Source: an uncultured virus (IMG/VR IMGVR_UViG_3300042484_001250) (Duplodnaviria; Heunggongvirae; Uroviricota; Caudoviricetes). From it: DNA of 64,000 nucleotides. A program made the translations under genes and the position numbers. Positions 15,701 through 38,566 of the stretch are shown here, piece by piece. The stretch covers positions 62,001-126,000 of the IMG/VR virus record IMGVR_UViG_3300042484_001250; one strand, given 5' to 3'. The notes beneath the pieces are model-generated. The model had not been told where the DNA came from. It did no database searches and saw nothing but the letters and a program-made list of their open reading frames with translations. Within the stretch, counting starts at the first letter, position 1; the number at the start of each line of letters is the position of its first letter.

Positions 15701-16507
15701 ATGCTCAACGAGTGTATCATTGTATCGAAAGAAGTTGGTGATAAGTTTATCTTAGCAAAGAATAGAGATAGAGCTTACAAACCAAAATTAGAAATTATCC
15801 ACACTATCATAAATGGTGTGGAAGTTGCATACATTCACGATATGATTACCGATTGGAGTGAAGGTATGAATGAGTTTGGAATTGGTATTGTGAATTCAGC
15901 TCTAATGGTGGGTCACGATGAGGCAGAAGCAAAGTTAGTAAAGAAGAGTGGTAAACCATCCAAAGATGGGAAAAAGATTAGAACTGCACTTTCACAAAAA
16001 ACTTTAAGAGAAGCAATCAAAGCAGCAGTATTAACCGATGGTGGTGTTAATGGACATACATTTGTTTCATCCCCAAGGTATATGGTTAGTATTGAGAAAA
16101 CATCAAAACATAAACCTAATATTATTTTACATAATATGGAAAATCCAGTTGTTCGTACAAATCACGGACATATGTTTACTAATGCTGGATACACACATGG
16201 AGAAAAATACTTATCATCTAAAATGAGAAAAATATCGGCTGAAAAATCAGTTGATAAAGTTGAAGATTGGAAAGAGATTGCAAATGCAATGAGAAAAGAA
16301 TTCTTTCCAAAACAATCTCAACTTAATATGGCAAGAAAAGCCAAAGAGATGTTCACATCATCTCAAACTGTACTTAACCTTACTGATAGAATATTACAAG
16401 TAGAATATTTTACTGATAACGTTGAGGAATTTGTTGGTATAACTAATAAGTTACCAAAGGACTACAAAGCTAAAATTAGTATTGTGGTTAAACCAATTCA
16501 ATCCTAA
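15701..16507 (+). CDS. Ntn-hydrolase (C45/NRDE-like cysteine nucleophile)
   Basis: Start ATG 15701: MLNE-CIIV; AKNRDR, SEGMNEFGIGIVNSAL and VRTNH motifs. Confidence 0.75.
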   Translation: MLNECIIVSKEVGDKFILAKNRDRAYKPKLEIIHTIINGVEVAYIHDMITDWSEGMNEFGIGIVNSALMVGHDEAEAKLVKKSGKPSKDGKKIRTALSQKTLREAIKAAVLTDGGVNGHTFVSSPRYMVSIEKTSKHKPNIILHNMENPVVRTNHGHMFTNAGYTHGEKYLSSKMRKISAEKSVDKVEDWKEIANAMRKEFFPKQSQLNMARKAKEMFTSSQTVLNLTDRILQVEYFTDNVEEFVGITNKLPKDYKAKISIVVKPIQS

Positions 16508-16558
16508 CTTTTTATAGTTTAGATATTTATATACAAACAATATATAAATAGAATTACT

Positions 16559-16951
16559 ATGTCAACCGAATTCGAATTATTCAAAGGTAAAACATTAGGT
16601 TCACTTTTTGAGGATATCTATAATAACCAAACACAAAAGAAAGCCAAAATATCCGAACTAATCATTGAACTAAAAAAAATGGTTAGGCATGCTGGGGATA
16701 TGGCTGTTATAGGTCCTTTAATTAGAGACCTTATAGATACTTCCGTTAAGAATGATGACCAATTAGTTAAATTAGCAAACCTTGCTCAAAAACTAATAGC
16801 ATCGGAAAAGAAATCGGAGGGTGATGATGGATTCCTTTCAGCATTTGAAAAAGAACAACTACTTAAAGATATTGAAGATACTCAATTGGAATTAGAAAGA
16901 GTTGATGAATTGGAAAACGAAATAGAAGAACTTAAACTAAAAGTAAAATAA
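16559..16951 (+). CDS. Helical hypothetical phage protein
   Basis: ORF preceded by TATTTATA; coiled-coil character. Confidence 0.7.
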   Translation: MSTEFELFKGKTLGSLFEDIYNNQTQKKAKISELIIELKKMVRHAGDMAVIGPLIRDLIDTSVKNDDQLVKLANLAQKLIASEKKSEGDDGFLSAFEKEQLLKDIEDTQLELERVDELENEIEELKLKVK

Positions 16952-16952
16952 A

Positions 16953-18191
16953 ATGACATTACAAAATTCAAGTGTTGTATCTACGCAAATAACACAAACA
17001 GGACCGATAACTACTAGCGTAAGTAAGGGAATGGGATTTGTATATAGTGTTATATTAGATGAAACACATCCTGCTATAAAAGATAGTAATGGTAATAGAA
17101 AAATATCATATATAGGAGCAATTGAATATAGGTTTGCAAATAATGTAGCATCTGATGATGCAAATTTACCAATTGCATTTCCATTTGATAAAAATTTTAA
17201 AAATTTACCGGTTGTAAACGAAAGTGTTGAAATTTATCAAAATGGTAGTGTGTCTATGTATAGGCGTGTTGGACAAGATATAACACCAAATATAAATTCA
17301 GACCAAAAAGCTATAACAAAACATTATGGTGAAAAAACAAAATTAGATAATAAAGGTAATGATTATAATAAAGTACAAACCACTGGTATAGTTAAAACAA
17401 ATGTAAACGAATCATTGCAATTAGATGGGTTTGGAAAATATTTTAAAACAGAAAGGGGAATACACAGATTAAAATTATACGAAGGTGATAGTTTGGTTGA
17501 AACACGGTTTGGACAATCTATAAGATTCTCTGGATACAATAATCCTAAAAATGTATTCTCACCAACTGTAATAATTAGAAATGGCGAAAGTCAGATAACA
17601 AGAAAAAAACCAATAACAGAATCTATATTAGAAGATATAAATAAAGATGGCAGTATCATTGCTATGACATCTGACCAATATGAGTTATCGTTTTTACCTG
17701 GTACTGTTAGTGAAACTGGTACAACTGATTTTCAAACAGCTCCAACATCATTTCAACAATATCCATCTAAATTAATTGGTGACCAAATTCTAATCAATTC
17801 TGGAAGATTGATATTTTCTGCAAAAAGTGCGGAAATGATATTTTATTCTAAAAAGAATTATGGGTTTATATCAGATGGTGCCATGTCAATTGATAATGCA
17901 TTGGGGATTGATGTTAGTGTGGGTGGTGATATAAATGTATTAACTAACGATAGGAGTGTTCATTTATATACAGGAAATGGTTCTATTATATTGGGTAGTC
18001 AGGGATTAGAACCATTGGTAAAAGGACAAACTTTAGTAGATATATTGGGTGAGTTAATAGATACAATTGTAGCACAACAATATCTAACTCCATCCGGCCC
18101 AACTAAAATAGGTCCTGAAAATGTACCAAAATTTGCATCTATAAAGTCAAAACTTAATTCAATGTTAAGTAAATTAAATCAAACTGCTTAA
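16953..18191 (+). CDS. Baseplate central spike/hub, T4 gp5-like (no lysozyme domain)
   Basis: OB-like N-region (LPVVNESVEI), EGDSLVETRFGQSIRF, beta-helix-like repeats, LTPSGPT tip; located before gp25/gp6. Confidence 0.6.
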   Translation: MTLQNSSVVSTQITQTGPITTSVSKGMGFVYSVILDETHPAIKDSNGNRKISYIGAIEYRFANNVASDDANLPIAFPFDKNFKNLPVVNESVEIYQNGSVSMYRRVGQDITPNINSDQKAITKHYGEKTKLDNKGNDYNKVQTTGIVKTNVNESLQLDGFGKYFKTERGIHRLKLYEGDSLVETRFGQSIRFSGYNNPKNVFSPTVIIRNGESQITRKKPITESILEDINKDGSIIAMTSDQYELSFLPGTVSETGTTDFQTAPTSFQQYPSKLIGDQILINSGRLIFSAKSAEMIFYSKKNYGFISDGAMSIDNALGIDVSVGGDINVLTNDRSVHLYTGNGSIILGSQGLEPLVKGQTLVDILGELIDTIVAQQYLTPSGPTKIGPENVPKFASIKSKLNSMLSKLNQTA

Positions 18192-18195
18192 ATAT

Positions 18196-18771
18196 ATGGC
18201 AACGATAATTCAACCACCATTACCAAAATTTGATACTACATCACTAAATGCGGATTTGGCTAATAAAATAAAAGCGCCTGAATTGCAAGAAATACCTGAT
18301 GGTAGTGGTAATTTACGTTCTATGATAAAAGACCAATCTATGCAATTGGGTACTAATATAGAAGGTACTTTAGACCAATTTGGAGAAAACATAGAAGCCG
18401 AAGCAGAGAGAAAAGCTGCAGAATTAGAAGCTGCTGCAAAACAAATAGAAGCGGCAGCATTAGCAGCTGCTAAAATGATTGAAGAAGAATTAAAAAGAAA
18501 AAAAGAAGAAGCAAAGAAAGCAATTGAAGATGCAAAAAAAGAAGCAAAGGAGGCATTTCAAAAAGCACTAACCGCAAAAGAACAGGCGGAAGATATGATA
18601 GCAAAATTACGTGGATTTAAAATACCCAGATTAAAAAAATTAAAACCCATACCAACAAAAGATTTACCAGCACCTCCTCAATATGCTAAATATATGGATG
18701 CTGATGCAAAACGGGAATACGCCGAAAATGCTAAAAGTTCGGCAACAAAAGGAGAACCACCAATAGTATAA
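18196..18771 (+). CDS. Ala/Glu/Lys-rich coiled-coil protein
   Basis: Heptad-rich central region, Pro-rich ends. Confidence 0.65.
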   Translation: MATIIQPPLPKFDTTSLNADLANKIKAPELQEIPDGSGNLRSMIKDQSMQLGTNIEGTLDQFGENIEAEAERKAAELEAAAKQIEAAALAAAKMIEEELKRKKEEAKKAIEDAKKEAKEAFQKALTAKEQAEDMIAKLRGFKIPRLKKLKPIPTKDLPAPPQYAKYMDADAKREYAENAKSSATKGEPPIV

Positions 18772-18774
18772 ATT

Positions 18775-19839
18775 ATGTCTTGGGAAATATTTAAACAAAA
18801 TATTGTAAGAATTTCAAATAGACCAGGTAGTATACCTGATATAGATACTGTGGCTAGGGCTTATGCAGTTGAATACGATGCTGCAATTAAAAGAGGATTT
18901 GATACTTTAAATAATATAGCAATTCAGCAAGGTGATGTTGCAACAATGGAAAGATTGTTTAAAATTGCTTTACAAAAAGGATTATCATCAACAGGTCCAT
19001 ATGATTTAGTTGGTGAAATGGGAAAGGGTGTAATTGCGTATTGGAGTGCACCAGGTGGGCCTGCTAGTATAGCTGATAATGCGGATGGTATTGATGCGGT
19101 GGAGGCTGAAGCAATTCAAACCGATATTAATAGAGAATACCCAAAAACTCAATTAGAGTATGAAAGACAGTTTCCATCAAAAGAAGCCGCAATGGCAAAT
19201 AATAGTAATGTTTCACCAAAAGAAGCATTAGATTCTGTAAACGATTTTAATAATGAAAAATCCCAAAGTAATGCTGATACTAAATTAGTTGGAAGGGGTG
19301 ATACTGCATTATTTAATAAATGTGGAAATGGAATATGGCCTGCATTGGGAACTGCTCCAAATTTTGAAATAAGAAGTATAGAAAATGCTGACTCAGATTG
19401 TCCTAGAAAATGGTACAAAACAAATCAAGAATATCTAACAAAAAATTGTACTCAAATAATGTTTCCAACTGCCAAAGGTAGTTCTAAAATATTAGTTCAT
19501 AAAAATTTGGCAGCAATTATAAAACCCGCATTAGAAGAAATAAAAGCAAAAGGATTGCAAAGATATATTGAAAATTGCGGAGGTGGGTTGGCTATTAGAA
19601 ATGTAACTTGTGGTACTAGATTATCAAATCATAGTTGGGGAACTGCGATTGATATGAATACGGGAATATACCCATATGGTGTAAAATTTAAATCAGATGG
19701 AATTTATAGTGGTAAGAAAAAACTTAGAGAACTTAATGAATTTGATAAAGGATTCCAACAAGTAGCAGCAATATTTAAATCAAAAGGAATGACATGGTTA
19801 AGTAATAATGACCCAATGCACGTTTCTATATATGAATAA
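18775..19839 (+). CDS. Baseplate-associated protein with C-terminal M15 family peptidoglycan peptidase
   Basis: SNHSWGTAIDMN (SxHxxGxAxD) and DPMH zinc ligands. Confidence 0.85.
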   Translation: MSWEIFKQNIVRISNRPGSIPDIDTVARAYAVEYDAAIKRGFDTLNNIAIQQGDVATMERLFKIALQKGLSSTGPYDLVGEMGKGVIAYWSAPGGPASIADNADGIDAVEAEAIQTDINREYPKTQLEYERQFPSKEAAMANNSNVSPKEALDSVNDFNNEKSQSNADTKLVGRGDTALFNKCGNGIWPALGTAPNFEIRSIENADSDCPRKWYKTNQEYLTKNCTQIMFPTAKGSSKILVHKNLAAIIKPALEEIKAKGLQRYIENCGGGLAIRNVTCGTRLSNHSWGTAIDMNTGIYPYGVKFKSDGIYSGKKKLRELNEFDKGFQQVAAIFKSKGMTWLSNNDPMHVSIYE

Positions 19840-19849
19840 TTATTAAGAT

Positions 19850-20686
19850 ATGGGAGCTATAATGAGAAACTTTCCAATACCACTTATACCAGCACCAGGC
19901 TCAACTGCCAATGTTGCTGTAATAAATAATGTGGTTTTAAGTCCGGGAGTTTGGGGACCACCACAACCATCGGTAGGAGCAAGACAGGGAGATACTTTAT
20001 CCGAAGAGGAAAAAGCTGGTGCACAAGAAGATTTGGATGTTGCAAAAAAAGATTTGCAAGAATTTCAAAATGACCCAACACCCGAAGGACAGGCTAAAGC
20101 ACAAACTGCAAGAGAACAAATAGCATATCAATCGGAAAGATTGGGAAGTGGTGAGAATGCATCTTCATCGGATGTATCAAATGAACCAAAGCAAGAGATT
20201 ATAGCAGATTTGCCACCTGATATGGAAATAGGATTAAAAATAGTTCAATATGCTTTAAGAGATTTAGGAGTAACTGAAAATCCACTACCACCGGGAAAAC
20301 CTGAAAATTCCGGTCCAAGAGTTTTACAAATGTTAAAAGGTGTTGGATTTAATACACCCGCATATTGGTGTGCTGCTGCGGTATCTGCTTGGTATAAGAG
20401 TGCTGGTGCAAAATCACCCAATAGTGCATCATGTGATGTTTGGATGAGTTGGGCAAAACGAAATGGATTGTTTAGTAGCAAACCTGCAATTGGAGCAGCT
20501 ATTTTATATGGTAGTTCGGCAGATGCACATCACATAGGAATTGTTGAGGCAATAAGTGGGGATAGAGTAACTACAATAGAAGGTAATACTTCTGGTGGTG
20601 GTTTTAGTAGAAACGGAGTAGGTGTATTCCGTAAATCAGCAAGAATTGCAAAAGCAGTTGGATTTGTATTACCAATAAAAAAATAA
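19850..20686 (+). CDS. Baseplate-associated protein with C-terminal CHAP domain
   Basis: YWCAAAV, HIGIVE and TIEGNT motifs. Confidence 0.88.
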   Translation: MGAIMRNFPIPLIPAPGSTANVAVINNVVLSPGVWGPPQPSVGARQGDTLSEEEKAGAQEDLDVAKKDLQEFQNDPTPEGQAKAQTAREQIAYQSERLGSGENASSSDVSNEPKQEIIADLPPDMEIGLKIVQYALRDLGVTENPLPPGKPENSGPRVLQMLKGVGFNTPAYWCAAAVSAWYKSAGAKSPNSASCDVWMSWAKRNGLFSSKPAIGAAILYGSSADAHHIGIVEAISGDRVTTIEGNTSGGGFSRNGVGVFRKSARIAKAVGFVLPIKK

Positions 20687-20690
20687 TAAA

Positions 20691-21623
20691 ATGTCAGCAG
20701 TTAGACCTACGGATAATACTGGAGTAATAGTTGATGAGTTCATTCGTTATGCAACTCAACATTTAACTACTGTAACCGGCGTTATATCAACAACATCTTT
20801 ATATCCACCTTTGGGTACACCCGGACCGGGTATTATAAATTGGACAGGTTATACAGTTCCCCCAGCAGCACCATCAATACCTATTGGTCAAGTTGATACA
20901 TCTGCAATAGAAATGACACCTGAACAAGAAGCAATAGCTGAAAGAGCATCACAAAGGGGAGCTGATTTAAATTCTGCAACCGCAGCTGCACTATCTGGTG
21001 TGGAATATACAGGCGGTTCTTCTGGTGGAGGTGGTGGAGGTGGTAGTGATTCTGGCGGTGTAGTATCTTTATCCGCAGATAAATTGCCGGTTGATGGTGT
21101 TGAAAAAATACCTAATTACAAAACAAGTGTAAAAGTTCCACCCGAAATAGTTGTTGCTATGAGAAAATATGGAGTGGGTAGAAGTCCTTTGGAAAGAGCA
21201 CACTTTTTAGCACAATGTGCTCACGAAAGTGGAGGATTTATTTATAGAGAAGAATTGGCAAGTGGAGCTGCATATGAAGGTAGACGTGATTTGGGTAATA
21301 CACAACCTGGCGATGGTGTACGATATAAAGGTAGGGGATATATTCAATTAACGGGTAGAGCAAACTATACAAAATTTGGACCTGTTGCTGGTGGTGATTT
21401 TGTAGGAAATCCAAGAGTAGTTGCACAGCAATATTATGCTGATACCGCTTGTTTATTTTGGAAATCAAATAGTTTAGGTCCAAAATGTGTTAATTCATCG
21501 ATTGATACTATTAAAGTTGTAACTAAAAGAATCAATGGTGGTTATAATGGATTGAACGATAGAGTAAGTAGATTTGCAGTTTATTGGAGAGAATTACAAA
21601 GAGACCCGACACTTTGGGCATAA
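20691..21623 (+). CDS. Baseplate-associated protein with C-terminal GH19 lysozyme/chitinase
   Basis: FLAQCAHES, YKGRGYIQLTGRANY and TKRINGGYNGL motifs. Confidence 0.92.
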   Translation: MSAVRPTDNTGVIVDEFIRYATQHLTTVTGVISTTSLYPPLGTPGPGIINWTGYTVPPAAPSIPIGQVDTSAIEMTPEQEAIAERASQRGADLNSATAAALSGVEYTGGSSGGGGGGGSDSGGVVSLSADKLPVDGVEKIPNYKTSVKVPPEIVVAMRKYGVGRSPLERAHFLAQCAHESGGFIYREELASGAAYEGRRDLGNTQPGDGVRYKGRGYIQLTGRANYTKFGPVAGGDFVGNPRVVAQQYYADTACLFWKSNSLGPKCVNSSIDTIKVVTKRINGGYNGLNDRVSRFAVYWRELQRDPTLWA

Positions 21624-21678
21624 ATCCCAAAAATAAACAAATCAAATATTTATATTAACAACAACGAAAGATAATCAA

Positions 21679-22185
21679 ATGAATACGGATAAATTATTAA
21701 AAGCTATTCAAATTCTTATCAAAGAGGAGTTAAAACAACAACTCCCTGCTTTGATTAAAGAAGGAGTGAAAGCGGAAATGAAAAAGGTTTTAGCGGAAGG
21801 AAATACTAAACCACAACCTAAAAAAGAAAGTGAAGGATTTTCAATGGCTAAAGCAATATTGGGGAATGATACTATTAAGGAATCGGTTGAAACTAAAGTA
21901 GTAGAAACTAAACAATTTAGTAAAAACCCAATTATTAATCAAATTTTAAATGAAACAAGAGGTGGTATCCCACAAGGTGATGGTGGTTTTAGAACAATGA
22001 ATTTTGGACAAGGTGATATGGGGTCTGTTGTAGGTAGAACTGCAGTAGCTGATAAAATGGGATATGGTGATTTAGCTAGAGGACCTCAACCAAGTGGATT
22101 AGGTGTTCAAACTGGGGTGCCTGAATTGGATAAAGCATTGAACAGAGATTATTCAGAATTAGTAAAACGATTTAATAAAAAATAA
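21679..22185 (+). CDS. Hypothetical virion protein with LxE motifs
   Basis: LIKEE, LAE and ILNET motifs; late-type promoter. Confidence 0.65.
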   Translation: MNTDKLLKAIQILIKEELKQQLPALIKEGVKAEMKKVLAEGNTKPQPKKESEGFSMAKAILGNDTIKESVETKVVETKQFSKNPIINQILNETRGGIPQGDGGFRTMNFGQGDMGSVVGRTAVADKMGYGDLARGPQPSGLGVQTGVPELDKALNRDYSELVKRFNKK

Positions 22186-22607
22186 TGGCAGTATTATTAG
22201 GTCAAAGGATGGTTAAAGATACAATTGCATATAACGATTATGCTATTGGTATTACATTGCCATTACAAATAGGAAATAATGCATTTAATCAATCATTTAA
22301 AACAATTGACCAAGTAAAAACAAATATTAAAAACCTTTTATTAACAAAAAGAAAAGAAAGAGTAATGCAACCGGAATTGGGTAGTGGCTTACAAGAATTA
22401 CTTTTTGATTTTAATGATGACTTTTTAGCTGATGAAATAGAAGAAGTTATTACAAACAGTATGGAAAAGTGGTTGCCATACGTTACTATTGAAGAAATTG
22501 ATGTTAGACAGACTGATGAATTTAAGGATACCAATCGTGTTGAAATTTCATTAACATTTAGTATAACAAATAATGTAGGTATGGAGACAGTAACCTTTAC
22601 AGTATAA
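22185..22607 (+). CDS. gp25: Baseplate wedge subunit, gp25-like
   Basis: NIKNLLLTKRKERVMQPELGSGL...WLPYV. Confidence 0.9.
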   Translation: MAVLLGQRMVKDTIAYNDYAIGITLPLQIGNNAFNQSFKTIDQVKTNIKNLLLTKRKERVMQPELGSGLQELLFDFNDDFLADEIEEVITNSMEKWLPYVTIEEIDVRQTDEFKDTNRVEISLTFSITNNVGMETVTFTV

Positions 22608-22611
22608 AAAA

Positions 22612-24648
22612 ATGGCATTAACTACAATAAATAAGAATTTTAAAAACAAAGGAAAAGATATAAAATATCTAAATAAAGACTTTGCTGCATTTAGAGAAAA
22701 CTTAATTGAATTTTCTAAAACATATTTTCCAAAAACATATTCTGATTTTAATGAAACATCACCTGGTATGATGTTTATTGAATTAGCATCGTATGTTGGT
22801 GATTCATTATCTTATTATGTAGATGATACTTTAAAAGAATCATTAATGCCATACGCTGAAGATATTCAAAGTGTAATTGCATTATCTCAATTTTTGGGAT
22901 ATAAACCAAAAGTAACATCTCCAGCAATAACAAATGTATCGGTATATCAATTAATTCCATCAATTGGAAGTGGTGTTAATAACAAACCAGATGAAACATA
23001 TTTTCTTAGAATAAAAGAAGGTATGCGATTACAATCTACTGAAAATGATATTTTATTTAGAACAACAGACGTAGTTGATTTTAATGATGAAAACAATAGA
23101 GAGATTACAATTTACGAAAGAGATGTAAATACTGGAGAACCTACTTTTTATTTGGTTAAAAAATATGTACAAGCAATATCAGCTATCACATCGGAAAGAA
23201 CATTTACGTTTGGAGCATATCAACCATTTCAATCAATAACATTAGATGAAACGAACATTATTCAAATATATGATGTTAGGGATTCGAATGGAAACAAATA
23301 TTATGAAGTTCCATATTTGGGACAAGAAATGGTGTATATTGAACAACCAACAACAGAATCAAATGATGCTGAATTATATCAATTTAAAACAACAGTTCCA
23401 TATATTCTTAAAACTATAAAAACACCAAGAAGATTTGTAGCAAAAGTAAATCAAAATAGTACAACTACATTACAATTTGGAGCAGGTGACCCATCCGCAT
23501 CGGATGAACAATTAATACCAAATCTTAAAAATGTAGGACTTGGTTTACCAAACTCAATTAGTAGATTGGAAGAATCATTTGACCCAACTAATTTTTTAAA
23601 AACAAAAACGTATGGAACATCTCCATCAAACACAAGTATTATTGTTAAATATTTTGTAGGTGGTGGTATTAGTTCAAATATAGTTAAAGGTGATTTGACT
23701 AGAATAGTTGGAATAGAATATGAAGATGATATTGATTCATTTACAAATGCACAAATAGCAACATATAATAGTATTAAAAATTCAGTAGCAGTTGATAACG
23801 AAATACCCGCAACAGGTGGTAGAGATGGTGAAACTATTGAAGAGATTAGACAAAACGCATTGGCAAACTTTGGTGCACAAAATAGAGCAGTAACTGCAAA
23901 AGATTATCAAGTTAGAGCATTATCATTACCATCAAAATATGGTGGTGTTGCTAAAGCATTTGCAACTGCAGATGGTACATTGGATAATAATTCACCTGCT
24001 TCTATATTAGCATCACCAAATCATTTACAAGAGTTTACGGATTTGGTTATGAGTTTTGTTAATAAGCCTGATTCAGAAGAACCAACTATACAATCCGTTA
24101 AGCAAGATATTACAACATATTTAATTGGTAAAGATTCCAACTTAAAGGAAAAAAATAATCCGTTTGCAATTAACCTCTATTTGTTGGGATATGATTTAAA
24201 CGGAAATCTTACAAATCTTAATAAAGCAGTAAAAGAAAATCTTAAAACTTATATGAACGAATACCGAATGTTGACAGATGGTGTTAATATAAGTGATGGG
24301 TATATTATAAATATTGGTGTTGAGTTTGATATTATCATATATAACAACTACAACAAAAGTGAAGTACTTACTAAATGTATTACTGAATTGAAAGATTATT
24401 TTAATATAGATAATTGGACATTCAATCAAACAATTAATTTAAGCGAAGTAGAATTACTAATAGCAAACGTTGAAGGTGTATCATCAGTACCAATGATGAA
24501 AATAACAAATAAATGTGGTGGAAATTATTCACCAAATTCATATAACGTAGATGCTGCAACTAAAGATAAAATTGTATATCCATCGTTAGACCCATCTATT
24601 TTTGAAATTAAGTTTCCGGATTCAGACATTAAAGGACGAGTAAGATAA
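22612..24648 (+). CDS. gp6: Baseplate wedge subunit, gp6/Baseplate-J-like
   Basis: DFNETSPGMMFIEL, TLQFG and ATGGRDGETIEEIR...AQNRAVTAKDY motifs. Confidence 0.9.
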   Translation: MALTTINKNFKNKGKDIKYLNKDFAAFRENLIEFSKTYFPKTYSDFNETSPGMMFIELASYVGDSLSYYVDDTLKESLMPYAEDIQSVIALSQFLGYKPKVTSPAITNVSVYQLIPSIGSGVNNKPDETYFLRIKEGMRLQSTENDILFRTTDVVDFNDENNREITIYERDVNTGEPTFYLVKKYVQAISAITSERTFTFGAYQPFQSITLDETNIIQIYDVRDSNGNKYYEVPYLGQEMVYIEQPTTESNDAELYQFKTTVPYILKTIKTPRRFVAKVNQNSTTTLQFGAGDPSASDEQLIPNLKNVGLGLPNSISRLEESFDPTNFLKTKTYGTSPSNTSIIVKYFVGGGISSNIVKGDLTRIVGIEYEDDIDSFTNAQIATYNSIKNSVAVDNEIPATGGRDGETIEEIRQNALANFGAQNRAVTAKDYQVRALSLPSKYGGVAKAFATADGTLDNNSPASILASPNHLQEFTDLVMSFVNKPDSEEPTIQSVKQDITTYLIGKDSNLKEKNNPFAINLYLLGYDLNGNLTNLNKAVKENLKTYMNEYRMLTDGVNISDGYIINIGVEFDIIIYNNYNKSEVLTKCITELKDYFNIDNWTFNQTINLSEVELLIANVEGVSSVPMMKITNKCGGNYSPNSYNVDAATKDKIVYPSLDPSIFEIKFPDSDIKGRVR

Positions 24649-25715
24649 TGATATATTTTTTAACAGCATCTAAAGATGCAACATTGTATTTACAGCAACC
24701 CAATCAAAATACTGGGCTTGATGAGATATTGGAAATAAATAAAGTATATTATGGAAATATAAAAGATATAACCCATGCTTTACTTAAATTTGAAATGGGG
24801 TATCTATCATCTTCAATTGTAAGTGGTGATGTATCAATGAGTAATGCAACTCTTATTTTGAGAGAAACCGAAAGTAATGAGATACCATTAGATTACACAA
24901 TATTTGCAAATGCATTATCTGGCAGTTGGGAAATGGGTAAAGGTAATCGATTTGATGAAATTGAAACCGCCGGTGTAACTTGGAATTATAGAGATGGTGA
25001 TAATAGTGTTGAATGGTTAGAAAACACTTTTAACACAAACACAACTGCTAGTGTAAATAATGGAACTGGTGGTACTTGGTGGACTAATTATCAGGCATCT
25101 CAAGGATATAGTTATCAAACTGCTGATATTGAAATGGATGTTAAATCTATTTTAAGAGGATGGGTAAGTGGTTCTATTCCAAACGATGGTTTTATTTTAA
25201 GGAGAGATGTTGACAAAGAAAGAGATACAAATGATTACGGTCAACTTAAATTCTTTTCAAAAGAAACGCATACAATTTATCAACCAAAAATTAGAATAGG
25301 TTGGGATGACCAAAAAATTGTAACTGGTTCACTAACCGAATTAACAACCGAAGATATAAAAGTTAGTATATCTAATTTAAAGAAAGAATATAAATTAAAT
25401 AGTATTCCAAAATTAAGAGTGTTGGGTAGAGAATTATATCCATTAAAAACATTTACAAGCACATTTGCATATAATGATGTTAAGTATTTACCCGAAACTA
25501 CATATTATCAAATAAAAGATTTACATTCAAACGATGTAATAATCCCCTTTTCGGAATATTCAAAAGTAAGTTGTGATTCAATTGGTAACTATATAAATTT
25601 AAATCTTTCCAATTGGGAGGTTGATAGAAAATATAAAATAGAATTTAAAATAGATAGAGATGGTTCTATTTCTTATTTTGATGATAATATAATATTTGGT
25701 GTAATTAAGTACTAA
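24648..25715 (+). CDS. Structural protein with DNRLRE/CBM-like beta-sandwich domain
   Basis: KDATLY...NTG, WEMG...VTWN and NDGFIL...KFFSKE...PKI pattern; baseplate context. Confidence 0.5.
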   Translation: MIYFLTASKDATLYLQQPNQNTGLDEILEINKVYYGNIKDITHALLKFEMGYLSSSIVSGDVSMSNATLILRETESNEIPLDYTIFANALSGSWEMGKGNRFDEIETAGVTWNYRDGDNSVEWLENTFNTNTTASVNNGTGGTWWTNYQASQGYSYQTADIEMDVKSILRGWVSGSIPNDGFILRRDVDKERDTNDYGQLKFFSKETHTIYQPKIRIGWDDQKIVTGSLTELTTEDIKVSISNLKKEYKLNSIPKLRVLGRELYPLKTFTSTFAYNDVKYLPETTYYQIKDLHSNDVIIPFSEYSKVSCDSIGNYINLNLSNWEVDRKYKIEFKIDRDGSISYFDDNIIFGVIKY

Positions 25716-28357: not shown

Positions 28358-31300
28358 ATGGCTGCACCAAAACAAATAGGATATGATGATTATGGAAATC
28401 CATTATTGGATGAATCTGGCGCACCTTTATTTATTGGTGAGGGTAGTGGTGGGAATCCAATAGGTTCACCAGCATTCGCACCCACTCCACCACCTGCTAC
28501 TCTTCCCCAGTCCACATCATATACATTTCGTCTTGAAAACATAACTGGTGATGATGTAGTATTTTCTTATCAAGCTCCTAATTCTGTTTATAAAAATGTA
28601 ACTGTTTTTGCATATTCAAACAGAGAAGTTTGTGCTATACCAGACACATTTACATATCCACCTGGTTTAGATGTTACTCAATTAAGTCCCTGTGATAATC
28701 CAACTGGTGGAACTCCATCAACACCGGGTGGAAGTACCGAACCGATTGATGGTATTGGGCGAACTCCTGCACCTGTATCTGCAACTAAATTTAATCTTAG
28801 AATTATAAGTGCAAATGCTGCTGGTAGTACTCAAAAATATGTAATAAATGGAAAAGAATATTCCGAAGCAACTAATTATGAGTTTGATATAAATGATTTT
28901 AAGAATGCAGTTGAAATTATACCAAATTACAACAATAAATTATATAATTTAAAAAACGCGTTTAGAATACATACACAACGTAGTGGAACATTAGCTATTT
29001 TTGAAACTCTAACAAAGTATGGTTCTGATAATTCTGGTTCCGAAATTAATAGATTTTTTGATACATTCCCAACAGATATTACAGTAACATTTGATTATGA
29101 ACCATTTGCATTACCACCCCCAACAAATGATTCTGTTGAATTACAACTTGAATTGGATGGTCAAAGTGAGTCTGCAGTAGTTTTATTAGATAGTGGAGTG
29201 GAATATCTTGTAAAATCTGGATATTCGGTAATAAATGTTAAATTAGGCAGTACTTTTAAATTATATTCCAATGGTAGCGATTATAATGTAACAAGATTAC
29301 TTGGTATAGAATCACAAGGTGATAGAGATGTTACTGCATTTGATTTAAATGCCAATGCAACAACACCCTCACTTGAATTAAGTTATAGAGTAAAACAATC
29401 AGTAAAAGTTTTCATAACAACTAATTCGGTACAAAGGGTTGAAAGTAGACCAAAAATAGTTCCTGGTATTAGTTTTACTGCTGGTGATAGTAGAGAATAT
29501 AATACAAATTCTGAAACTGGTGTTGCATTTACAATCGGAAAATCTGGCGGTGTAAGCAGAATTAGAGTATCTGTAAATAATCAAGAATACACATTTAGTG
29601 ATTTAGGCAGTGATGGTGAAACAATAATTTATTTACCTGATGCAGCATTCCCAACACCTGGTCAATATAGAATTATAATGGTCCCATCCAATGGAAATGG
29701 TGATGGGAATCCAATAGAAGGACTTGTAAGTGCATTTGCAGATTTTTGGGTAGGTGTTCCTGATATTAGAGATATTGTATATCCATCGGTATTAAGAGGA
29801 CCTGATTATACTGGAACTAATGTTGATTTTGATTTAAGTTATAAAACAGTTAATGCTGATTTTGTTAGAATATCAAAAGAGGGTAGTTCACAATATATTC
29901 AAGGACCTGCATCTGGTACTATAAAATTAAATGTACAACAAATTTTAGATTTAGATAATACTCTTACTTCGGAAGATGAAGATAAGATTTCATTTACTTT
30001 AAAATTAGTTGCATATAACATAAGTGGGTTATCACCTGTTATAAGTAGAGAAGAATTTATTACAATTCTATTTGATAAGGGTGATTTAATAATCCCAAGA
30101 CCATTAGCAATGAATAGAATTGCCGATGGTTTCTTTTCACAATTTAATACAAATGTATTTGCAGATGAAACTTCAAAATATTTAACACACTTATTACATT
30201 TAGGCGATGGTGATAACAAAGTAGTTACTACGTGGGTTGGAAGTGATAATAGTTTAATATTAAAATTATACGAACCATTAACAACGGCAGTACAAGCAAA
30301 TCAACAAGTTTGGATTTCAAAATTACAATCAAATCCAATTGTTGAAACTGTAACTTTAAAAAACGAAGTAGATGAATTTTGCCCTCCATTAAAAGGACCT
30401 AATTTCAGTTTAGATACATCCGTTGGTATTGGATATAAAGTGTTTGATGAATTGACTGCAAGTGGTTCATATACTTCAAACGATATTGTAAACAAATATT
30501 TGGAGGGTAATGGAATTGATACATCTAAATTAAATATATCATATGCAAGTGGTTCTGTTTATTTGTTTAATAATTTTGTAAATTTTAGTTCTGCTGAAGA
30601 AAGAGTAAATAACTTTTTTTATAAAGTACAATTAATAGAAACTTATAAAGATAAATATACAAGATTAATAGCAGATACATTTACAAATCCATACATAGAT
30701 TTACAATCAAATTTATTAGCAGAATATGACGCTACAAATGCAGATGTATTTTTAACAACATATAGTTCTCAAAACAATGCAAATTTAATAACTGAAGATA
30801 CTATATTTGATTTAATTCAATGGGAGATTAATCAACCAAAAGGTACTGCTCAAATTTCCGAAGCTAAAAATATATTAGAAAAAGCAAATGTTTTAATTAG
30901 AGGACTTGATGGATTTGAAAAATGGTTATATACGGATTTAATATATTCAGATAGTTTATCATACCCAAAAACTACTTCAACAAACGGTCTTACTGGTTTA
31001 ACTACTTATGTTTTAAAACCAACTACCGATAGTGAAGTTACTGCTTGGTATGAATCTTTAATTAATTTGGCGTATGAATTTGACAAATACAATCCAAATT
31101 ATTTAGTAAACAATATACCTGAATTTATAAAAGAAGATTATGATAATAATGATTTCATACTTTTCTTAGATATGATTGGGCAACATTTTGATATTATTTG
31201 GGTTTATATTAAAGCATTATCTGGAAACAAATTATTAGAAGAAAAACAATTTAAAGGAGCTACAAATAATCTTATATATTACCTATTGGAATCAATGGGT

Positions 31301-33721
31301 TGGGATGGTAAGAGAGCGTTTGATTCACAATTCCTTTGGGAGTATGCGTTTGGAACTGATAGAGAAGGTAATCAAAAATATGGAATGCCATTGGAAGATG
31401 CAAACAATCAAGTTTGGAGAAGAATCCTAAACAACCTACCATATTTATTAAAACATAAAGGTACATCCAGAGCTATGAAAGCAGCTATGGCTTGTTATGG
31501 TGTTCCCCAATCCATGTTAACAATTATGGAATATGGTGGACCGCAAGACCCAACAAAAGATGGTACTACTAAATTTACATTTGATGATAGAACTGCTGCA
31601 ATTAAATTAAACTCTGGTTCATATAATTCTTCTGTTGTTGTTCCTTGGAAATCAATAAATGGTTCATATCCACAAGGTATTGAATTTAGAATAAAACCTG
31701 ATAACGTACATAATACAACTATTATATCATCATCTCAATTTAAATTAGATATAATACAAACAACAGGTTCTTTTGCAACTTTACGATTTGGATTGGGTGG
31801 TAATGCAATATCAGCAGGACCTTATATAGAAACGCCATTTACATCTGCATCCGTATCAACTACTTATTTTACAGCATCTATTGAATATGTGCTGGGGCCT
31901 GATACTGTTAGTGGTAGTTCTAATTTTCCATTATCTACCGAATATTATAGTAATGTTTTAATAAATAGATATCAATTAGGAGGTCAATTTTCATCCGCAT
32001 CACGTTATGAGGTATTACTAAAAACATCCGATGGACAACGAATTGTGAATTCCGTGAGTATGTCTTTTGTTAGTACAAAGGAATATTGGGAAAGTGGTTC
32101 TAATTTAACAATAGGTAAAGATTTTGATGGTAACTTAGATGAGTTTAGATTATGGAGAGTTCCACTGCAACCATCTAAATTAGAAAATCACACATTACAC
32201 CCAGATGCTATAAATGGAAATTCATATACTTCATCAACGGCTGATTTATTATTTAGATTAGATTTCGAATATCCAAAAAATAGAATATTAGACCCATATA
32301 TTAAAAACGTTGCTATAAACACAACATATGGTGAAAATTATGCTACGGCTAGTAATATGTACCCCGCTACACTATATCCGTATCAATACACTCCATATGA
32401 TAGAACTGTAACAGCAACTGTACCATCGTTGGGATTAAATTATTCCAATAAAATTCGTTTTGAAGAACAAACTTTAGTTGGAGATTTATCTCATAAAGTA
32501 AGAGCAACTCAAAAAGCGTTTGATAGAGCACCAATAGATTCAAATAGATTAGGTATATTCTTATCTCCAATTAAGGAGTTAAATATGGATATTGTAAGAG
32601 CATTTGGTGATTTTAATATTGATAACTATATTGGTGACCCATCGGATGATTATAAAGATAATTATACAGAATTAACTAATTTAAGAACTTATTATTTCCA
32701 AAGATTAAATAGAAACATATACGAATACATTCAATTGGTTAGATATATTGATAAATCTTTATTTGATGTATTGGAAGATTTGGCACCAGCTAGAGCAAAG
32801 GTATCTAAAGGTTTATTAATTGAACCGCATTATTTAGAAAGAAGTAAAACTAAATGGAGTAAGCCTGAATCCGAAAGAGGTGATTATGAAACATTAATAA
32901 ACACATTTGAAGATAAGAAAATTGAATTAACTTATGAATCTAAAGATGCTTTAATAGATGCATCTACTCAAGTTAATTTAGAAGGAGATACTCCAAACTA
33001 TGATACTATAATAAATGCAGAAGATGTATATACATTGGAAGCAACTAATCCAAACTACGATACATTAATAAATACTAATGATAATATTATAATTGAAACC
33101 GAATATCCAACATACCCACCTACTGGTTCTGTTAATATTGATTGTAACTTGGGTTCAAAAATATTAGCTGAAGTAGATTCGTTTACAACTACTATTATTG
33201 GATTTGACCCTAACTCAATTGCTAATGCAGGATTTGGATTATATGCAGAAAATGGTAATAGTATTATTAGAAAAATAGAACCGGTATTTGGAAACTTTGA
33301 AACAACTGGTAGTAGAAGTAGTGTATTTTTAGTAAAAGAGCAATACAATACAAAAATATCAACTCAATTAAAAGGTTGGCCTACAATTGGTGCTTTACCT
33401 GGTGAGCAAGTATATTATGAAGATGTAGATGTAACAAATTACAGATATAAAGTTTCAATTTTACCATTTAGTGGAAGTATTAACGTTGGAAACGATACTG
33501 TTGAAGTAGTGGCATTAAATGGATATTTTCCATCACACTATAAATTTGTAAATAATTTATCGGAAGGAATGCAACGTTCTTACTTTAAAGGTTCTTTACA
33601 AACATCGGGTTCAACGCCAGATGGTTTAGCTGCAGTTGAAACATTTACAACTAATCCTAACATACTTAGAGTATCTAAAACAGGTAGAGGAAGTGGTGAA
33701 CCAATACTTGTTGTTGACTAA
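28358..33721 (+). CDS. Large baseplate wedge/tail protein with LamG-like domain (gp7-like)
   Basis: FLDMIGQHFD, NNLPYLLKHKGT (P2 gpI/gp7-like), FDGNLDEFRLW (LamG-like). Confidence 0.65.
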   Translation: MAAPKQIGYDDYGNPLLDESGAPLFIGEGSGGNPIGSPAFAPTPPPATLPQSTSYTFRLENITGDDVVFSYQAPNSVYKNVTVFAYSNREVCAIPDTFTYPPGLDVTQLSPCDNPTGGTPSTPGGSTEPIDGIGRTPAPVSATKFNLRIISANAAGSTQKYVINGKEYSEATNYEFDINDFKNAVEIIPNYNNKLYNLKNAFRIHTQRSGTLAIFETLTKYGSDNSGSEINRFFDTFPTDITVTFDYEPFALPPPTNDSVELQLELDGQSESAVVLLDSGVEYLVKSGYSVINVKLGSTFKLYSNGSDYNVTRLLGIESQGDRDVTAFDLNANATTPSLELSYRVKQSVKVFITTNSVQRVESRPKIVPGISFTAGDSREYNTNSETGVAFTIGKSGGVSRIRVSVNNQEYTFSDLGSDGETIIYLPDAAFPTPGQYRIIMVPSNGNGDGNPIEGLVSAFADFWVGVPDIRDIVYPSVLRGPDYTGTNVDFDLSYKTVNADFVRISKEGSSQYIQGPASGTIKLNVQQILDLDNTLTSEDEDKISFTLKLVAYNISGLSPVISREEFITILFDKGDLIIPRPLAMNRIADGFFSQFNTNVFADETSKYLTHLLHLGDGDNKVVTTWVGSDNSLILKLYEPLTTAVQANQQVWISKLQSNPIVETVTLKNEVDEFCPPLKGPNFSLDTSVGIGYKVFDELTASGSYTSNDIVNKYLEGNGIDTSKLNISYASGSVYLFNNFVNFSSAEERVNNFFYKVQLIETYKDKYTRLIADTFTNPYIDLQSNLLAEYDATNADVFLTTYSSQNNANLITEDTIFDLIQWEINQPKGTAQISEAKNILEKANVLIRGLDGFEKWLYTDLIYSDSLSYPKTTSTNGLTGLTTYVLKPTTDSEVTAWYESLINLAYEFDKYNPNYLVNNIPEFIKEDYDNNDFILFLDMIGQHFDIIWVYIKALSGNKLLEEKQFKGATNNLIYYLLESMGWDGKRAFDSQFLWEYAFGTDREGNQKYGMPLEDANNQVWRRILNNLPYLLKHKGTSRAMKAAMACYGVPQSMLTIMEYGGPQDPTKDGTTKFTFDDRTAAIKLNSGSYNSSVVVPWKSINGSYPQGIEFRIKPDNVHNTTIISSSQFKLDIIQTTGSFATLRFGLGGNAISAGPYIETPFTSASVSTTYFTASIEYVLGPDTVSGSSNFPLSTEYYSNVLINRYQLGGQFSSASRYEVLLKTSDGQRIVNSVSMSFVSTKEYWESGSNLTIGKDFDGNLDEFRLWRVPLQPSKLENHTLHPDAINGNSYTSSTADLLFRLDFEYPKNRILDPYIKNVAINTTYGENYATASNMYPATLYPYQYTPYDRTVTATVPSLGLNYSNKIRFEEQTLVGDLSHKVRATQKAFDRAPIDSNRLGIFLSPIKELNMDIVRAFGDFNIDNYIGDPSDDYKDNYTELTNLRTYYFQRLNRNIYEYIQLVRYIDKSLFDVLEDLAPARAKVSKGLLIEPHYLERSKTKWSKPESERGDYETLINTFEDKKIELTYESKDALIDASTQVNLEGDTPNYDTIINAEDVYTLEATNPNYDTLINTNDNIIIETEYPTYPPTGSVNIDCNLGSKILAEVDSFTTTIIGFDPNSIANAGFGLYAENGNSIIRKIEPVFGNFETTGSRSSVFLVKEQYNTKISTQLKGWPTIGALPGEQVYYEDVDVTNYRYKVSILPFSGSINVGNDTVEVVALNGYFPSHYKFVNNLSEGMQRSYFKGSLQTSGSTPDGLAAVETFTTNPNILRVSKTGRGSGEPILVVD

Positions 33722-36956: not shown

Positions 36957-37364
36957 ATGAATTGGTTATATGAGGGAAATATTGTTACGGAGGAAGACGT
37001 GCCTGTTGGTGCGGTGGGATTCGTATATAAAATAATTCACACTCCAACTGGTAGATACTATATAGGTAAGAAATCACTTACATCAACTAGAAAATTAGCA
37101 CCACTCAAAGGACAAAAAAGAAAAAGAACAGTAACCAAATCTTCGGATTGGGAAAAATACTATTCTTCAAACGATTGGATTAAAGAGCAAGTAAAGGAAG
37201 GTAAAGCTGACGAGTTCAGTAGAGAAATCATCCAATATTGTTTCTCTAAGAAATCATTAACATATTACGAAATCTATTGGCAGTTTCATTATAATGTACT
37301 TGCCGATGATAATGCAATAAACGAAAACCTAATGGGTAAATTCTATCGTAGGGATTTACTTTAA
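36957..37364 (+). CDS. Stand-alone GIY-YIG endonuclease
   Basis: GFVY...RYYIGKK, conserved E (YYEI) and N (INEN). Confidence 0.8.
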   Translation: MNWLYEGNIVTEEDVPVGAVGFVYKIIHTPTGRYYIGKKSLTSTRKLAPLKGQKRKRTVTKSSDWEKYYSSNDWIKEQVKEGKADEFSREIIQYCFSKKSLTYYEIYWQFHYNVLADDNAINENLMGKFYRRDLL

Positions 37365-37627: not shown

Positions 37628-38566
37628 ATGCTATCTGGTAAAAATAAAATTGTAGTTATATCGATTTTAGACACAACGCTTGGTGTTGGTTCATCTCTTA
37701 AAGGAAATGAGCAACAACACCATTGTCCATTTTGCCATCATCACAAAAAGAAACTACAAGTCAATTTAGATACACAGCAATGGCATTGTTGGGTGTGTAA
37801 CTCCAAAGGTCGTTCCATCTCATCTCTTCTTCGTAAACTAAATGTTGATAGGAGGGATTTGGATAGATTACATAAAATCTATGGAGATGAACCAGCATAC
37901 TCACCAACGGAAGAGTATGTAATCAAACTACAATTACCAAAGGAGTTCAAACAATTACATTTTAAACCATCGGGTCTATTTAATCCAATTTACACCAAAG
38001 CAATCCATTACCTAAAACAAAGAGGTATAAAGGATTCGGAGATTGTAAAATATAACATTGGATATTGTGAAGATGGATTATATGGGGGTAGGGTTATTAT
38101 ACCATCCTATGATGAGAGTGGTGAGTTAAACTATTTTATTGCTCGTTCTTTTTATGAGGATGAAAAGATGAAATACAAAAACCCACCTGTCAATAGAGAT
38201 GTTATTGTATTTGAGAATCAAATAAATTGGAATGAACCTATCACATTAGTTGAAGGAGCATTTGATGCATTTTCCGTAAAGAGAAATGTAATTCCTTTAT
38301 TGGGTAAATTCCTATTAAGTAAATTGAAGAATAAGATTTTTGAAAAAGGTGTAAAAGAAATCACCATAATGTTAGATTCGGATGCTATTGAAGATTCCAC
38401 AAAGCATTCAGAATGGTTTATTAAAAACGGAATTAAAGTTAAGAATATAATACCTAACGGCAAAGATGCCGGAGAGTTGGGATACGAAAGAGTAAACGAA
38501 CTTATTAAAACTACTACTGAAACTGGTTGGGATGATTTAGTCCTTGCCAAATTAAACAACGTATGA
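37628..38566 (+). CDS. dnaG: DNA primase (zinc-binding plus TOPRIM)
   Basis: CPFC...HCWVC zinc domain, GRVIIP, KYKNP, VEGAFDA and MLDSD motifs. Confidence 0.9.
   Translation: MLSGKNKIVVISILDTTLGVGSSLKGNEQQHHCPFCHHHKKKLQVNLDTQQWHCWVCNSKGRSISSLLRKLNVDRRDLDRLHKIYGDEPAYSPTEEYVIKLQLPKEFKQLHFKPSGLFNPIYTKAIHYLKQRGIKDSEIVKYNIGYCEDGLYGGRVIIPSYDESGELNYFIARSFYEDEKMKYKNPPVNRDVIVFENQINWNEPITLVEGAFDAFSVKRNVIPLLGKFLLSKLKNKIFEKGVKEITIMLDSDAIEDSTKHSEWFIKNGIKVKNIIPNGKDAGELGYERVNELIKTTTETGWDDLVLAKLNNV

Follow-up and report, generated by a model that had tools for sequence, protein, structure and literature searches.

Why do three adjacent phage genes, each ending in a different peptidoglycan hydrolase, begin with short non-catalytic pieces that read, in gene order, like successive parts of a single domain? 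This question is raised by positions 18,775 to 21,623 of a 64,000-nucleotide (nt) stretch of DNA from an uncultured member of the Caudoviricetes (positions 62,001 to 126,000 of IMG/VR record IMGVR_UViG_3300042484_001250), the whole of which we refer to as the window. An earlier note on this stretch had described each gene as an N-terminal piece followed by a linker and a C-terminal enzyme, and had proposed that the pieces (N1, N2 and N3, in gene order) arose by fission of one structural domain, which we call the anchor domain. The coordinates, N-terminal pieces and enzymes were all as described there, and the resulting layout is as follows, with protein lengths in amino acids (aa):

18775-19839 (+): gene 1, 354 aa; N1, linker and Peptidase_M15_4
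18775-19050 (+): N1, anchor fragment 1; gene 1 aa 1-92, four predicted helices, profile match
19051-19839 (+): gene 1 linker, Peptidase_M15_4 and stop codon; Pfam match at nt 19612-19827
19850-20686 (+): gene 2, 278 aa; N2, acidic linker and CHAP
19850-19975 (+): N2, anchor fragment 2; gene 2 aa 1-42, one predicted beta-strand and loops, profile match
19976-20686 (+): gene 2 acidic linker, CHAP and stop codon; Pfam match at nt 20360-20587
20691-21623 (+): gene 3, 310 aa; N3, Gly/Ser-rich linker and GH19
20691-20879 (+): N3, anchor fragment 3; gene 3 aa 1-63, one predicted helix and two predicted strands, profile match
20880-21623 (+): gene 3 Gly/Ser-rich linker, GH19 and stop codon; Pfam match at nt 21228-21488

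Each of the three proteins carried one catalytic domain that scored above its Pfam cut-off: Peptidase_M15_4 (PF13539) at aa 280-351 of gene 1 (33 bits against a cut-off of 25), CHAP (PF05257) at aa 171-246 of gene 2 (30.6 bits against 26), and Glyco_hydro_19 (GH19; PF00182) at aa 180-266 of gene 3 (31.5 bits against 25.5). PHROG endolysin families agreed with these assignments for the CHAP protein (phrog_9589, E 4e-21) and the GH19 protein (phrog_181, E 1.8e-40). At both breaks a low-complexity linker lay on the upstream side, and the downstream pieces opened straight with anchor residues. No Pfam family corresponding to intein or Hint halves was found on the three proteins at E≤0.01.

Collinearity of the pieces was assessed with a profile of natural intact domains. 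The loci of relatives were fetched from IMG/VR using gene 1 and the 412-aa protein encoded upstream of it as queries, which gave 153 loci, and profile A1, an alignment of 13 intact domains from other contigs with none from the window, was scanned against the 432 six-frame open reading frames (ORFs) of the window. Gene 1 matched profile positions 1-92 (E 7.5e-38), gene 2 matched positions 92-132 (E 4e-13) and gene 3 matched positions 129-191 (E 5.9e-24), with the next best ORF of the window reaching only E 0.48. Together the matches spanned profile positions 1 to 191 with overlaps of no more than 4 positions, and these three ordered matches indicate that the pieces are collinear, essentially non-overlapping, and jointly cover the whole domain. 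We also observed that the residues that are invariant in intact domains, namely YW at the end of N1, PGxW in N2, and HL and WxGY in N3, were kept in the window pieces.

Relatives provided the undivided form. Local tblastn with the pieces placed N1 and N2 contiguously in one ORF in most relatives, and N1, N2 and N3 contiguously in some. Four free-standing anchors of 185-187 aa, consisting of N1-N2-N3 only, were found at:

L073:2181-2741
L074:4592-5149
L075:2196-2756
L079:1499-2062

Further contiguous full-length homologues carried one enzyme. The search for such a homologue, which the earlier note had suggested as a check, was thus successful, and both the idea that the pieces joined in order make one domain and the idea that this domain was fissioned hold up against the intact-domain profile and the single-ORF homologues at the same locus. 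Because relatives encode the three pieces as one contiguous protein of ~186 aa next to the gene for a spike-like protein, gene fission is supported, and as judged from these alignments the three genes are the products of fission of a single ~186-aa structural domain of the baseplate module.

Removal of exact duplicates left 82 loci, many of which are still near-copies of one another. The commonest state among them was a two-way split, in which N1N2 with its cargo is followed by N3 with its own (60/82). The domain was intact with one C-terminal cargo in 12 loci and intact and free-standing in 4, so that intact single ORFs accounted for 16/82; it was split three ways in 3 (L001, which is identical to the window, L004 and L131), N2 was not found in 2 (L009 and L126), and an in-frame insert of ~250 aa lay between N2 and N3 in one (L080). 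All three segments were detectable, in order, in 80/82 loci, and N2 followed directly after N1 within one ORF in 77/82. In the two-way forms the first piece ended at profile position 126-148 (median 132) and the second started at position 127-130.

When profile A1 was searched against 1.84 billion cluster representatives, 433 representatives (50% identity) matched the anchor at E≤1e-3, none of which bore a Pfam or PHROG name. The 150 best of these comprised the full domain with a C-terminal extension (51) or alone (28), which together make 79 intact single ORFs, as well as N1N2 with (40) or without (5) an extension, an in-frame insert at the N2/N3 site (7), N1 only (5), N2N3 (2), and forms with a truncated or extended N-terminus (12). 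The architectures seen among the loci and these 150 representatives show that the same two break sites have been reused repeatedly and in several combinations.

Two of these loci deserve description in their own right. The L080 locus (L080:4047-5483) encodes a single 478-aa ORF in which the ~250-aa insert between N2 and N3 is rich in Lys, Glu and Pro and has no Pfam family. At L009:8806-10392, in an otherwise two-way clade, the ORF of the first gene stops after N1 (profile positions 1-87), and N3 comes only ~1.2 kb later, N2 being undetected in between; the gene may have been disrupted or have taken up an insertion, or the cause may be a sequencing error.

We next consider whether the pieces have been maintained since the split. 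The closest distinct relative, L004, has the same two breaks at ~90% identity, and its spike-like protein is 83% identical to that of the window. The ratios of nonsynonymous to synonymous substitution rates (dN/dS, Nei-Gojobori) between the window and L004 were 0.29 for N1, 0.10 for N2 and 0.135 for N3, values that derive from few substitutions (7 synonymous and 8 nonsynonymous in N1, 6 and 2 in N2), and that compare with 0.25 for the spike-like gene, 0.13 for gp25 and 0.06 for CHAP. N2 was 98% identical between the two loci. As measured by these substitution patterns, the pieces have been under purifying selection after the split. Gene 1 of L004 is only 104 aa long and consists of N1 and a 13-aa tail that shares homology with the first part of the window's linker, with no enzyme; to judge from this alignment, L004 has evidently lost the M15 enzyme but still encodes N1 as a separate ORF. 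That N1 has outlived its cargo is in keeping with a structural need for this piece, and not with a mere leader peptide.

A second three-way split was present in L131, whose spike-like protein is 41% identical to that of the window and whose genes pair N1 with M15_4, N2 with a 310-aa part that we could not assign, and N3 with Phage_lysozyme; its sister locus, L126, carries GH19 on N3. In a quick tree of the spike-like protein, the window and L004 were nested among two-way relatives (L147, L048) and L126 and L131 fell on a distant branch, such that the three-way label required at least 2 changes and all labels together required 10. It is therefore likely, although not proven, that the N1/N2 break arose independently more than once. 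As to how such a locus could originate, recombination or duplication may have placed an N1N2-M15 gene (as in L018 and L147) and an N1N2-CHAP gene (as in L022) in tandem, after which complementary loss would have removed N2 from the M15 copy and N1 from the CHAP copy.

The enzymes themselves are interchangeable between pieces. By hand tally of the Pfam results on the 104 longer cluster representatives, cargo was found in 59, the other 45 having no match at E≤1e-3: CHAP (21), VanY (11), M15_4 (5), M15_3 (1), Phage_lysozyme (7), GH19 (5), M23 (2), GDSL lipase (3), DUF2272 (2), C39_2 (1) and SH3_4 (1). Nearly all of these families are wall-active. The linker and M15 domain of the window's gene 1 were attached to N1N2 in L018 and L127 but to N3 in L024 and L123; CHAP was found behind N1N2 in L021 and L022 and behind N3 in L127; and VanY, lysozyme and GH19 were each also seen on either gene. 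Because the same cargo occurs on different pieces, the anchor behaves, so far as its homologues indicate, as a conserved platform on which the enzymes are swappable passengers carried by long low-complexity linkers.

An AlphaFold2 (AF2) prediction for the 186-aa L075 protein, made with alignment A1, gave a single compact model (mean predicted local distance difference test score, pLDDT, 80.7; predicted template modelling score, pTM, 0.78) with helices at residues 3-15, 21-38, 53-69, 77-89 and 136-151 and strands at 48-50, 111-120, 155-162 and 176-180. N1 corresponds to the first four helices, N2 to strand 111-120, and N3 to helix 136-151 together with strands 155-162 and 176-180. Both breakpoints fall in predicted loops, the N1/N2 break just after helix 77-89 and the N2/N3 break after strand 111-120. 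Since N2 contributes essentially one strand to the predicted model, it is unlikely to fold alone. An ESMFold2 complex run without alignments, on aa 1-96, 1-46 and 1-66 of the window proteins, returned an ipSAE of 0.00 in two runs, a result that counts neither way.

Database searches with the anchor were uniformly uninformative as to its identity. Foldseek of the anchor model against the PDB gave nothing at E≤0.001, and in a wide VIA-align search with the same model the top match was an unrelated protein at Z 5.3, which is within the tool's stated noise range; the anchor profile against PDB sequences reached only a Fab light chain at E 0.15. Matches in BFVD were exclusively uncharacterised proteins of uncultured phages, those in the ESM Atlas were exclusively "hypothetical protein" virus clusters, and a homologous-protein search returned only uncharacterised viral proteins without Pfam domains. 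Intact anchors matched no Pfam or PHROG family, and neither Pfam nor the fold searches linked the anchor to PAAR or VgrG, to which it may yet be distantly related. When the three window proteins were used as tblastn queries against INPHARED, they found matches through their catalytic domains only. Judged by these searches, the anchor would constitute a so far undescribed structural protein family that is abundant in (aquatic) phage metagenomes.

The genes that surround the trio are, in order:

16953-18191 (+): spike-like 412-aa protein; upstream gene, without a muralytic domain
18196-18771 (+): 191-aa coiled-coil-like protein; variable insert between the spike-like gene and the anchor
21679-22185 (+): p168, conserved 168-aa protein; after the anchor gene(s)
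22185-22607 (+): gp25-like baseplate wedge protein; Pfam GPW_gp25 E 1.5e-11, phrog_261 E 2e-22
22612-24648 (+): gp6/J-like baseplate wedge protein; phrog_6, phrog_219 and phrog_10646 (baseplate wedge subunit), E 1e-16 to 1e-17

The three lysin genes are thus flanked by the spike-like gene on one side and by the gp25-like and gp6/J-like genes on the other, that is, they lie in a tail/baseplate module. The gene order spike-like, anchor, p168, gp25 was conserved in all loci inspected for synteny, including those with free-standing anchors. Homologues of the spike-like protein in the fetched loci were 41-83% identical and were always directly upstream of the anchor gene(s). The p168 protein, which matched no Pfam or PHROG family, was 41-95% identical across loci and, where the fetched locus extends that far, was always located between the anchor gene(s) and gp25; it may be a partner of either the anchor or the spike. 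The 191-aa protein had only a sub-threshold Apolipoprotein-type Pfam match, and its identity was 77% in L004 and 24-40% where it was detected in other relatives; its gene was absent in L006-L010 (in L006 the spike-like gene abuts N1), and its product was ~450 aa in L011 and L015.

The 412-aa protein had no Pfam or PHROG match, and so no muralytic domain was detected in it, and phmmer against PDB sequences gave nothing meaningful. Its AF2 model was poor (pLDDT 57). Residues ~20-245 of the model weakly matched the P1 baseplate central-spike chain 9vzk_q (Z 6.9, root-mean-square deviation 3.6, 121 residues aligned), and further weak central-spike matches were to cyanophage A-1(L) (8kea_D), phiKZ (6orj), and the PVC and AFP spikes; 1wth was also among the weak structural-search rows. 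Foldseek matches to VgrG lay at E 0.009-0.1, the weak top row being 9jg9 (VgrG with bound effectors). Because the model is poor and the central-spike matches are weak, we call the protein "spike-like" only. The earlier note had suggested that related phages encode the domain as a single gene beside a gp5-like spike, and had taken this spike to lack a lysozyme of its own. The intact ~186-aa protein does lie beside the spike-like gene and the 412-aa protein does have no lysozyme domain, while its resemblance to central spikes is weak. The locus also departs from a T4 gp5-type layout, with the enzymes on separate proteins and none detected by Pfam or PHROG within the spike-like protein.

Spacing between the genes is tight. 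The gaps in the window were 10 nt between genes 1 and 2 and 4 nt between genes 2 and 3, and in 59/60 two-way loci the stop codon of the first gene (gene A) lay -1 to 15 nt from the ATG of the second (gene B); 25/60 of these junctions read TAA-T-ATG, and 4 overlapped. Distances of this kind are characteristic of translational coupling, which would help the products to be made in equal amounts and to assemble near the same mRNA.

From these results we favour the reading that the three N-terminal pieces come together in the baseplate as one anchor fold, so that each anchor holds three different wall hydrolases, a reading to which we assign a probability of roughly 70%. Each cut would open up a further C-terminus to which a separate linker and enzyme are joined, and both cuts would be in use in this phage: the four helices of N1 would carry the M15 metallopeptidase, the single beta-strand of N2 the CHAP peptidase/amidase, and the helix and two strands of N3 the GH19 glycosidase. 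The pieces, made from tightly coupled cistrons, would re-associate non-covalently into a single anchor fold. Once rebuilt, the anchor would sit where it normally does, in the tail tip or baseplate, and every copy would hold three different peptidoglycan hydrolases, in equal numbers, to digest the wall locally as the tail penetrates. We infer physical reassembly, presence in the virion, 1:1:1 stoichiometry and action at entry as opposed to lysis. With rather less assurance, though we still lean towards it, we propose that the locus is a natural three-piece split-protein display scaffold, in which repeated cuts at two permissive loops and fragment complementation deliver up to three enzymes 1:1:1 to the tail tip, and that the fission is adaptive, multiplying the sites for cargo, and is not damage in need of repair.

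What else could account for three genes of this kind? A sequencing or assembly artefact would be a natural suspicion for metagenome-like source data and an AT-rich genome (32% GC), and it is effectively refuted. The identical trio, at 100% identity, occurs in four IMG/VR contigs from four dataset ids (L001, L002, L003 and L005), and this agreement means that the stop codons are not an assembly artefact; moreover, L004 shares the two breakpoints at its ~90% identity, and the pieces lie in three frames, each with its own ATG and its own enzyme. Recoding is another candidate, as frameshifting, readthrough or bypass could join the genes into a polyprotein in which the enzymes are in-frame inserts. 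Natural in-frame inserts exist at the N2/N3 site (in L080 and in 7/150 best representatives), the window genes lie in successive +1 frames, and a run of seven A (20677-20683) sits in the 8-nt overlap (20679-20686) of the open frames of genes 2 and 3. Against this, the stop codon of gene 1 is at 19837-19839 and the frame of gene 2 is closed upstream by a TAA at 19844-19846, and because these two open frames do not overlap, no simple frameshift can join genes 1 and 2. Gene B also occupies all three frames relative to gene A across the 60 two-way loci (28, 18 and 14), so that no conserved recoding signal is evident, and each downstream piece has an ATG of its own, placed precisely at the homologous residue. 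Slippage at the seven-A run is conceivable and nothing supports it; we regard recoding as a whole as highly improbable.

Nearly as improbable, to our minds, is that the genes encode the phage's lysis enzymes (endolysins) and lie in the tail module by chance, with the conserved N-terminal domain serving regulation or export. PHROGs do call the catalytic domains endolysin, and the virion role is deduced from gene neighbourhood. That neighbourhood, however, places the genes between the spike-like gene and the gp25/gp6-like genes, the ORFs of 16000-25000 included no apparent holin-like neighbour, and an enzyme-free anchor occupies the same baseplate position in 4/82 loci, with 28/150 best representatives being likewise free of enzyme. 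More deserving of consideration, while still unlikely, is the explanation that one piece only (for example N3 or N1) still anchors, the others being vestigial leaders and the enzymes acting or docking independently. N2 measures only ~42 aa, the enzymes change places freely among the pieces, and assembly is predicted from gene data to which the ESMFold2 run adds nothing in either direction, all of which would suit vestigial pieces. Such pieces would not, however, be expected to persist as they do: the three segments remain in order in 80/82 loci, N2 shows 98% identity between the window and L004 (dN/dS 0.10), against 83% for the spike-like protein, L004 still has N1 as a 104-aa ORF although the enzyme is gone, and the window pieces keep the residues that do not vary among intact domains.

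Several points weigh against reassembly of the anchor at the tail tip and temper the estimate given above. Only the gene neighbourhood points to a virion location, since there was no cultured relative among the 50,697 phage records searched (tblastn of the intact anchor against INPHARED gave nothing at E≤0.1), and the fold of the anchor, which matched nothing solved, gives no pointer to its site within the baseplate. That the 412-aa neighbour is a spike-like protein without its own lysozyme is a reasonable assignment, suggested by weak matches to a poor model. The locus counts overstate the number of independent observations because the 82 loci are distinct by exact sequence only, and the dN/dS values carry the small substitution counts given with them. 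Finally, the tree of the spike-like protein was built from 68 rows by a quick maximum-likelihood search with Shimodaira-Hasegawa-like approximate likelihood-ratio test (SH-aLRT) support only, and because phage genomes are mosaic it may not trace the history of the anchor.

The window belongs to a large tailed phage, and among its other genes are those for the large terminase, portal, primase, an SbcCD-like nuclease and long tail fibres. A giant ORF of 1787 aa with no PHROG match lies downstream of the baseplate genes (28358-33718, +), and in a 2056-aa ORF (41966-48133, +) tail-fibre families match the C-terminal ~300-900 residues only. A 1047-aa ORF (38563-41703, +) is SbcD-like at aa 2-346 (phrog_100) and SbcC-like at aa 317-1046 (phrog_77), such that two subunits that are usually separate appear to be fused in one polypeptide. 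A 135-aa ORF (36957-37361, +) matches PHROGs labelled NAD synthetase and homing endonuclease (phrog_447, E 8e-32; phrog_314; phrog_7363), and its product may be a free-standing homing endonuclease encoded just upstream of the primase gene.

Should the pieces reassemble, the locus would be a natural counterpart of engineered split-protein scaffolds, and one of the few instances where the splitting of a gene is not merely tolerated but brings a functional gain, namely more points at which cargo can be attached. One fold in graded states (whole, with cargo, split in two, split in three, and with in-frame inserts) should be useful for studies of fold fragmentation. The 433 representatives at 50% identity now define a large unannotated baseplate family in aquatic phage metagenomes, and as a plug-in platform for wall hydrolases this family may be of interest for phage engineering and lysin mining. 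A full-text literature search, judged by titles and the starts of abstracts and with subscription journals and unopened supplements outside its scope, found no split anchor of this kind, and we know of no described equivalent.

Comparison with known systems helps to separate what is familiar here from what is not. T4 gp5 (the subject of Kanamaru et al. 2002) reportedly carries a lysozyme inside the spike protein, between the oligonucleotide/oligosaccharide-binding (OB) fold and the beta-helix, and its chain is said to be cut by proteolysis after assembly, with the pieces staying associated. Like gp5, the locus described here ties peptidoglycan hydrolases to a structural tail protein, with pieces that are proposed to stay assembled and to be used in wall penetration. 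Unlike in gp5, the spike-like protein is enzyme-free, the carrier is a separate ~186-aa domain without a fold match, and the cuts are genetic, yielding separate cistrons and up to three different enzymes. Virion-associated peptidoglycan hydrolases, or tail-associated lysins, are modular proteins with CHAP, M23, lysozyme or M15 domains that are encoded in tail modules, often with several specificities per virion; phi29 gp13, for example, has two catalytic domains on one polypeptide. The genes described here resemble them in being tail-module wall hydrolases linked to a structural part, a resemblance known in our case from genes. The known examples carry their domains on one polypeptide, whereas here one structural domain is spread over three polypeptides.

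The evolved VgrG and PAAR proteins of type VI secretion systems (T6SS) and extracellular contractile injection systems (eCIS) are spike-tip modules with exchangeable C-terminal toxin domains that are swapped between lineages. The anchor likewise is a conserved structural module with exchangeable C-terminal enzyme cargo; in contrast to these systems, it shows no relation to either family that was detectable with Pfam or the fold searches, and splitting of the carrier domain is not, to our knowledge, a feature of VgrG/PAAR systems. A precedent for a phage gene in pieces is NrdA of Aeromonas phage Aeh1, which was split by insertion of a homing endonuclease gene and whose products reassemble non-covalently without splicing or recoding; that split brings no gain, and added tails are needed for assembly (PMC3045599). 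As in Aeh1 NrdA, a phage gene has here been fragmented into adjacent genes. The present case differs in that what separates the pieces is enzyme cargo joined to the preceding one, in that the split increases the number of cargo attachment points, and in that the splits recur at two fixed loops across a large family, giving as many as three pieces in ~186 aa. Tail-borne lysins and genes in pieces are thus both known; the undescribed anchor family and the split carrier are what is new here.

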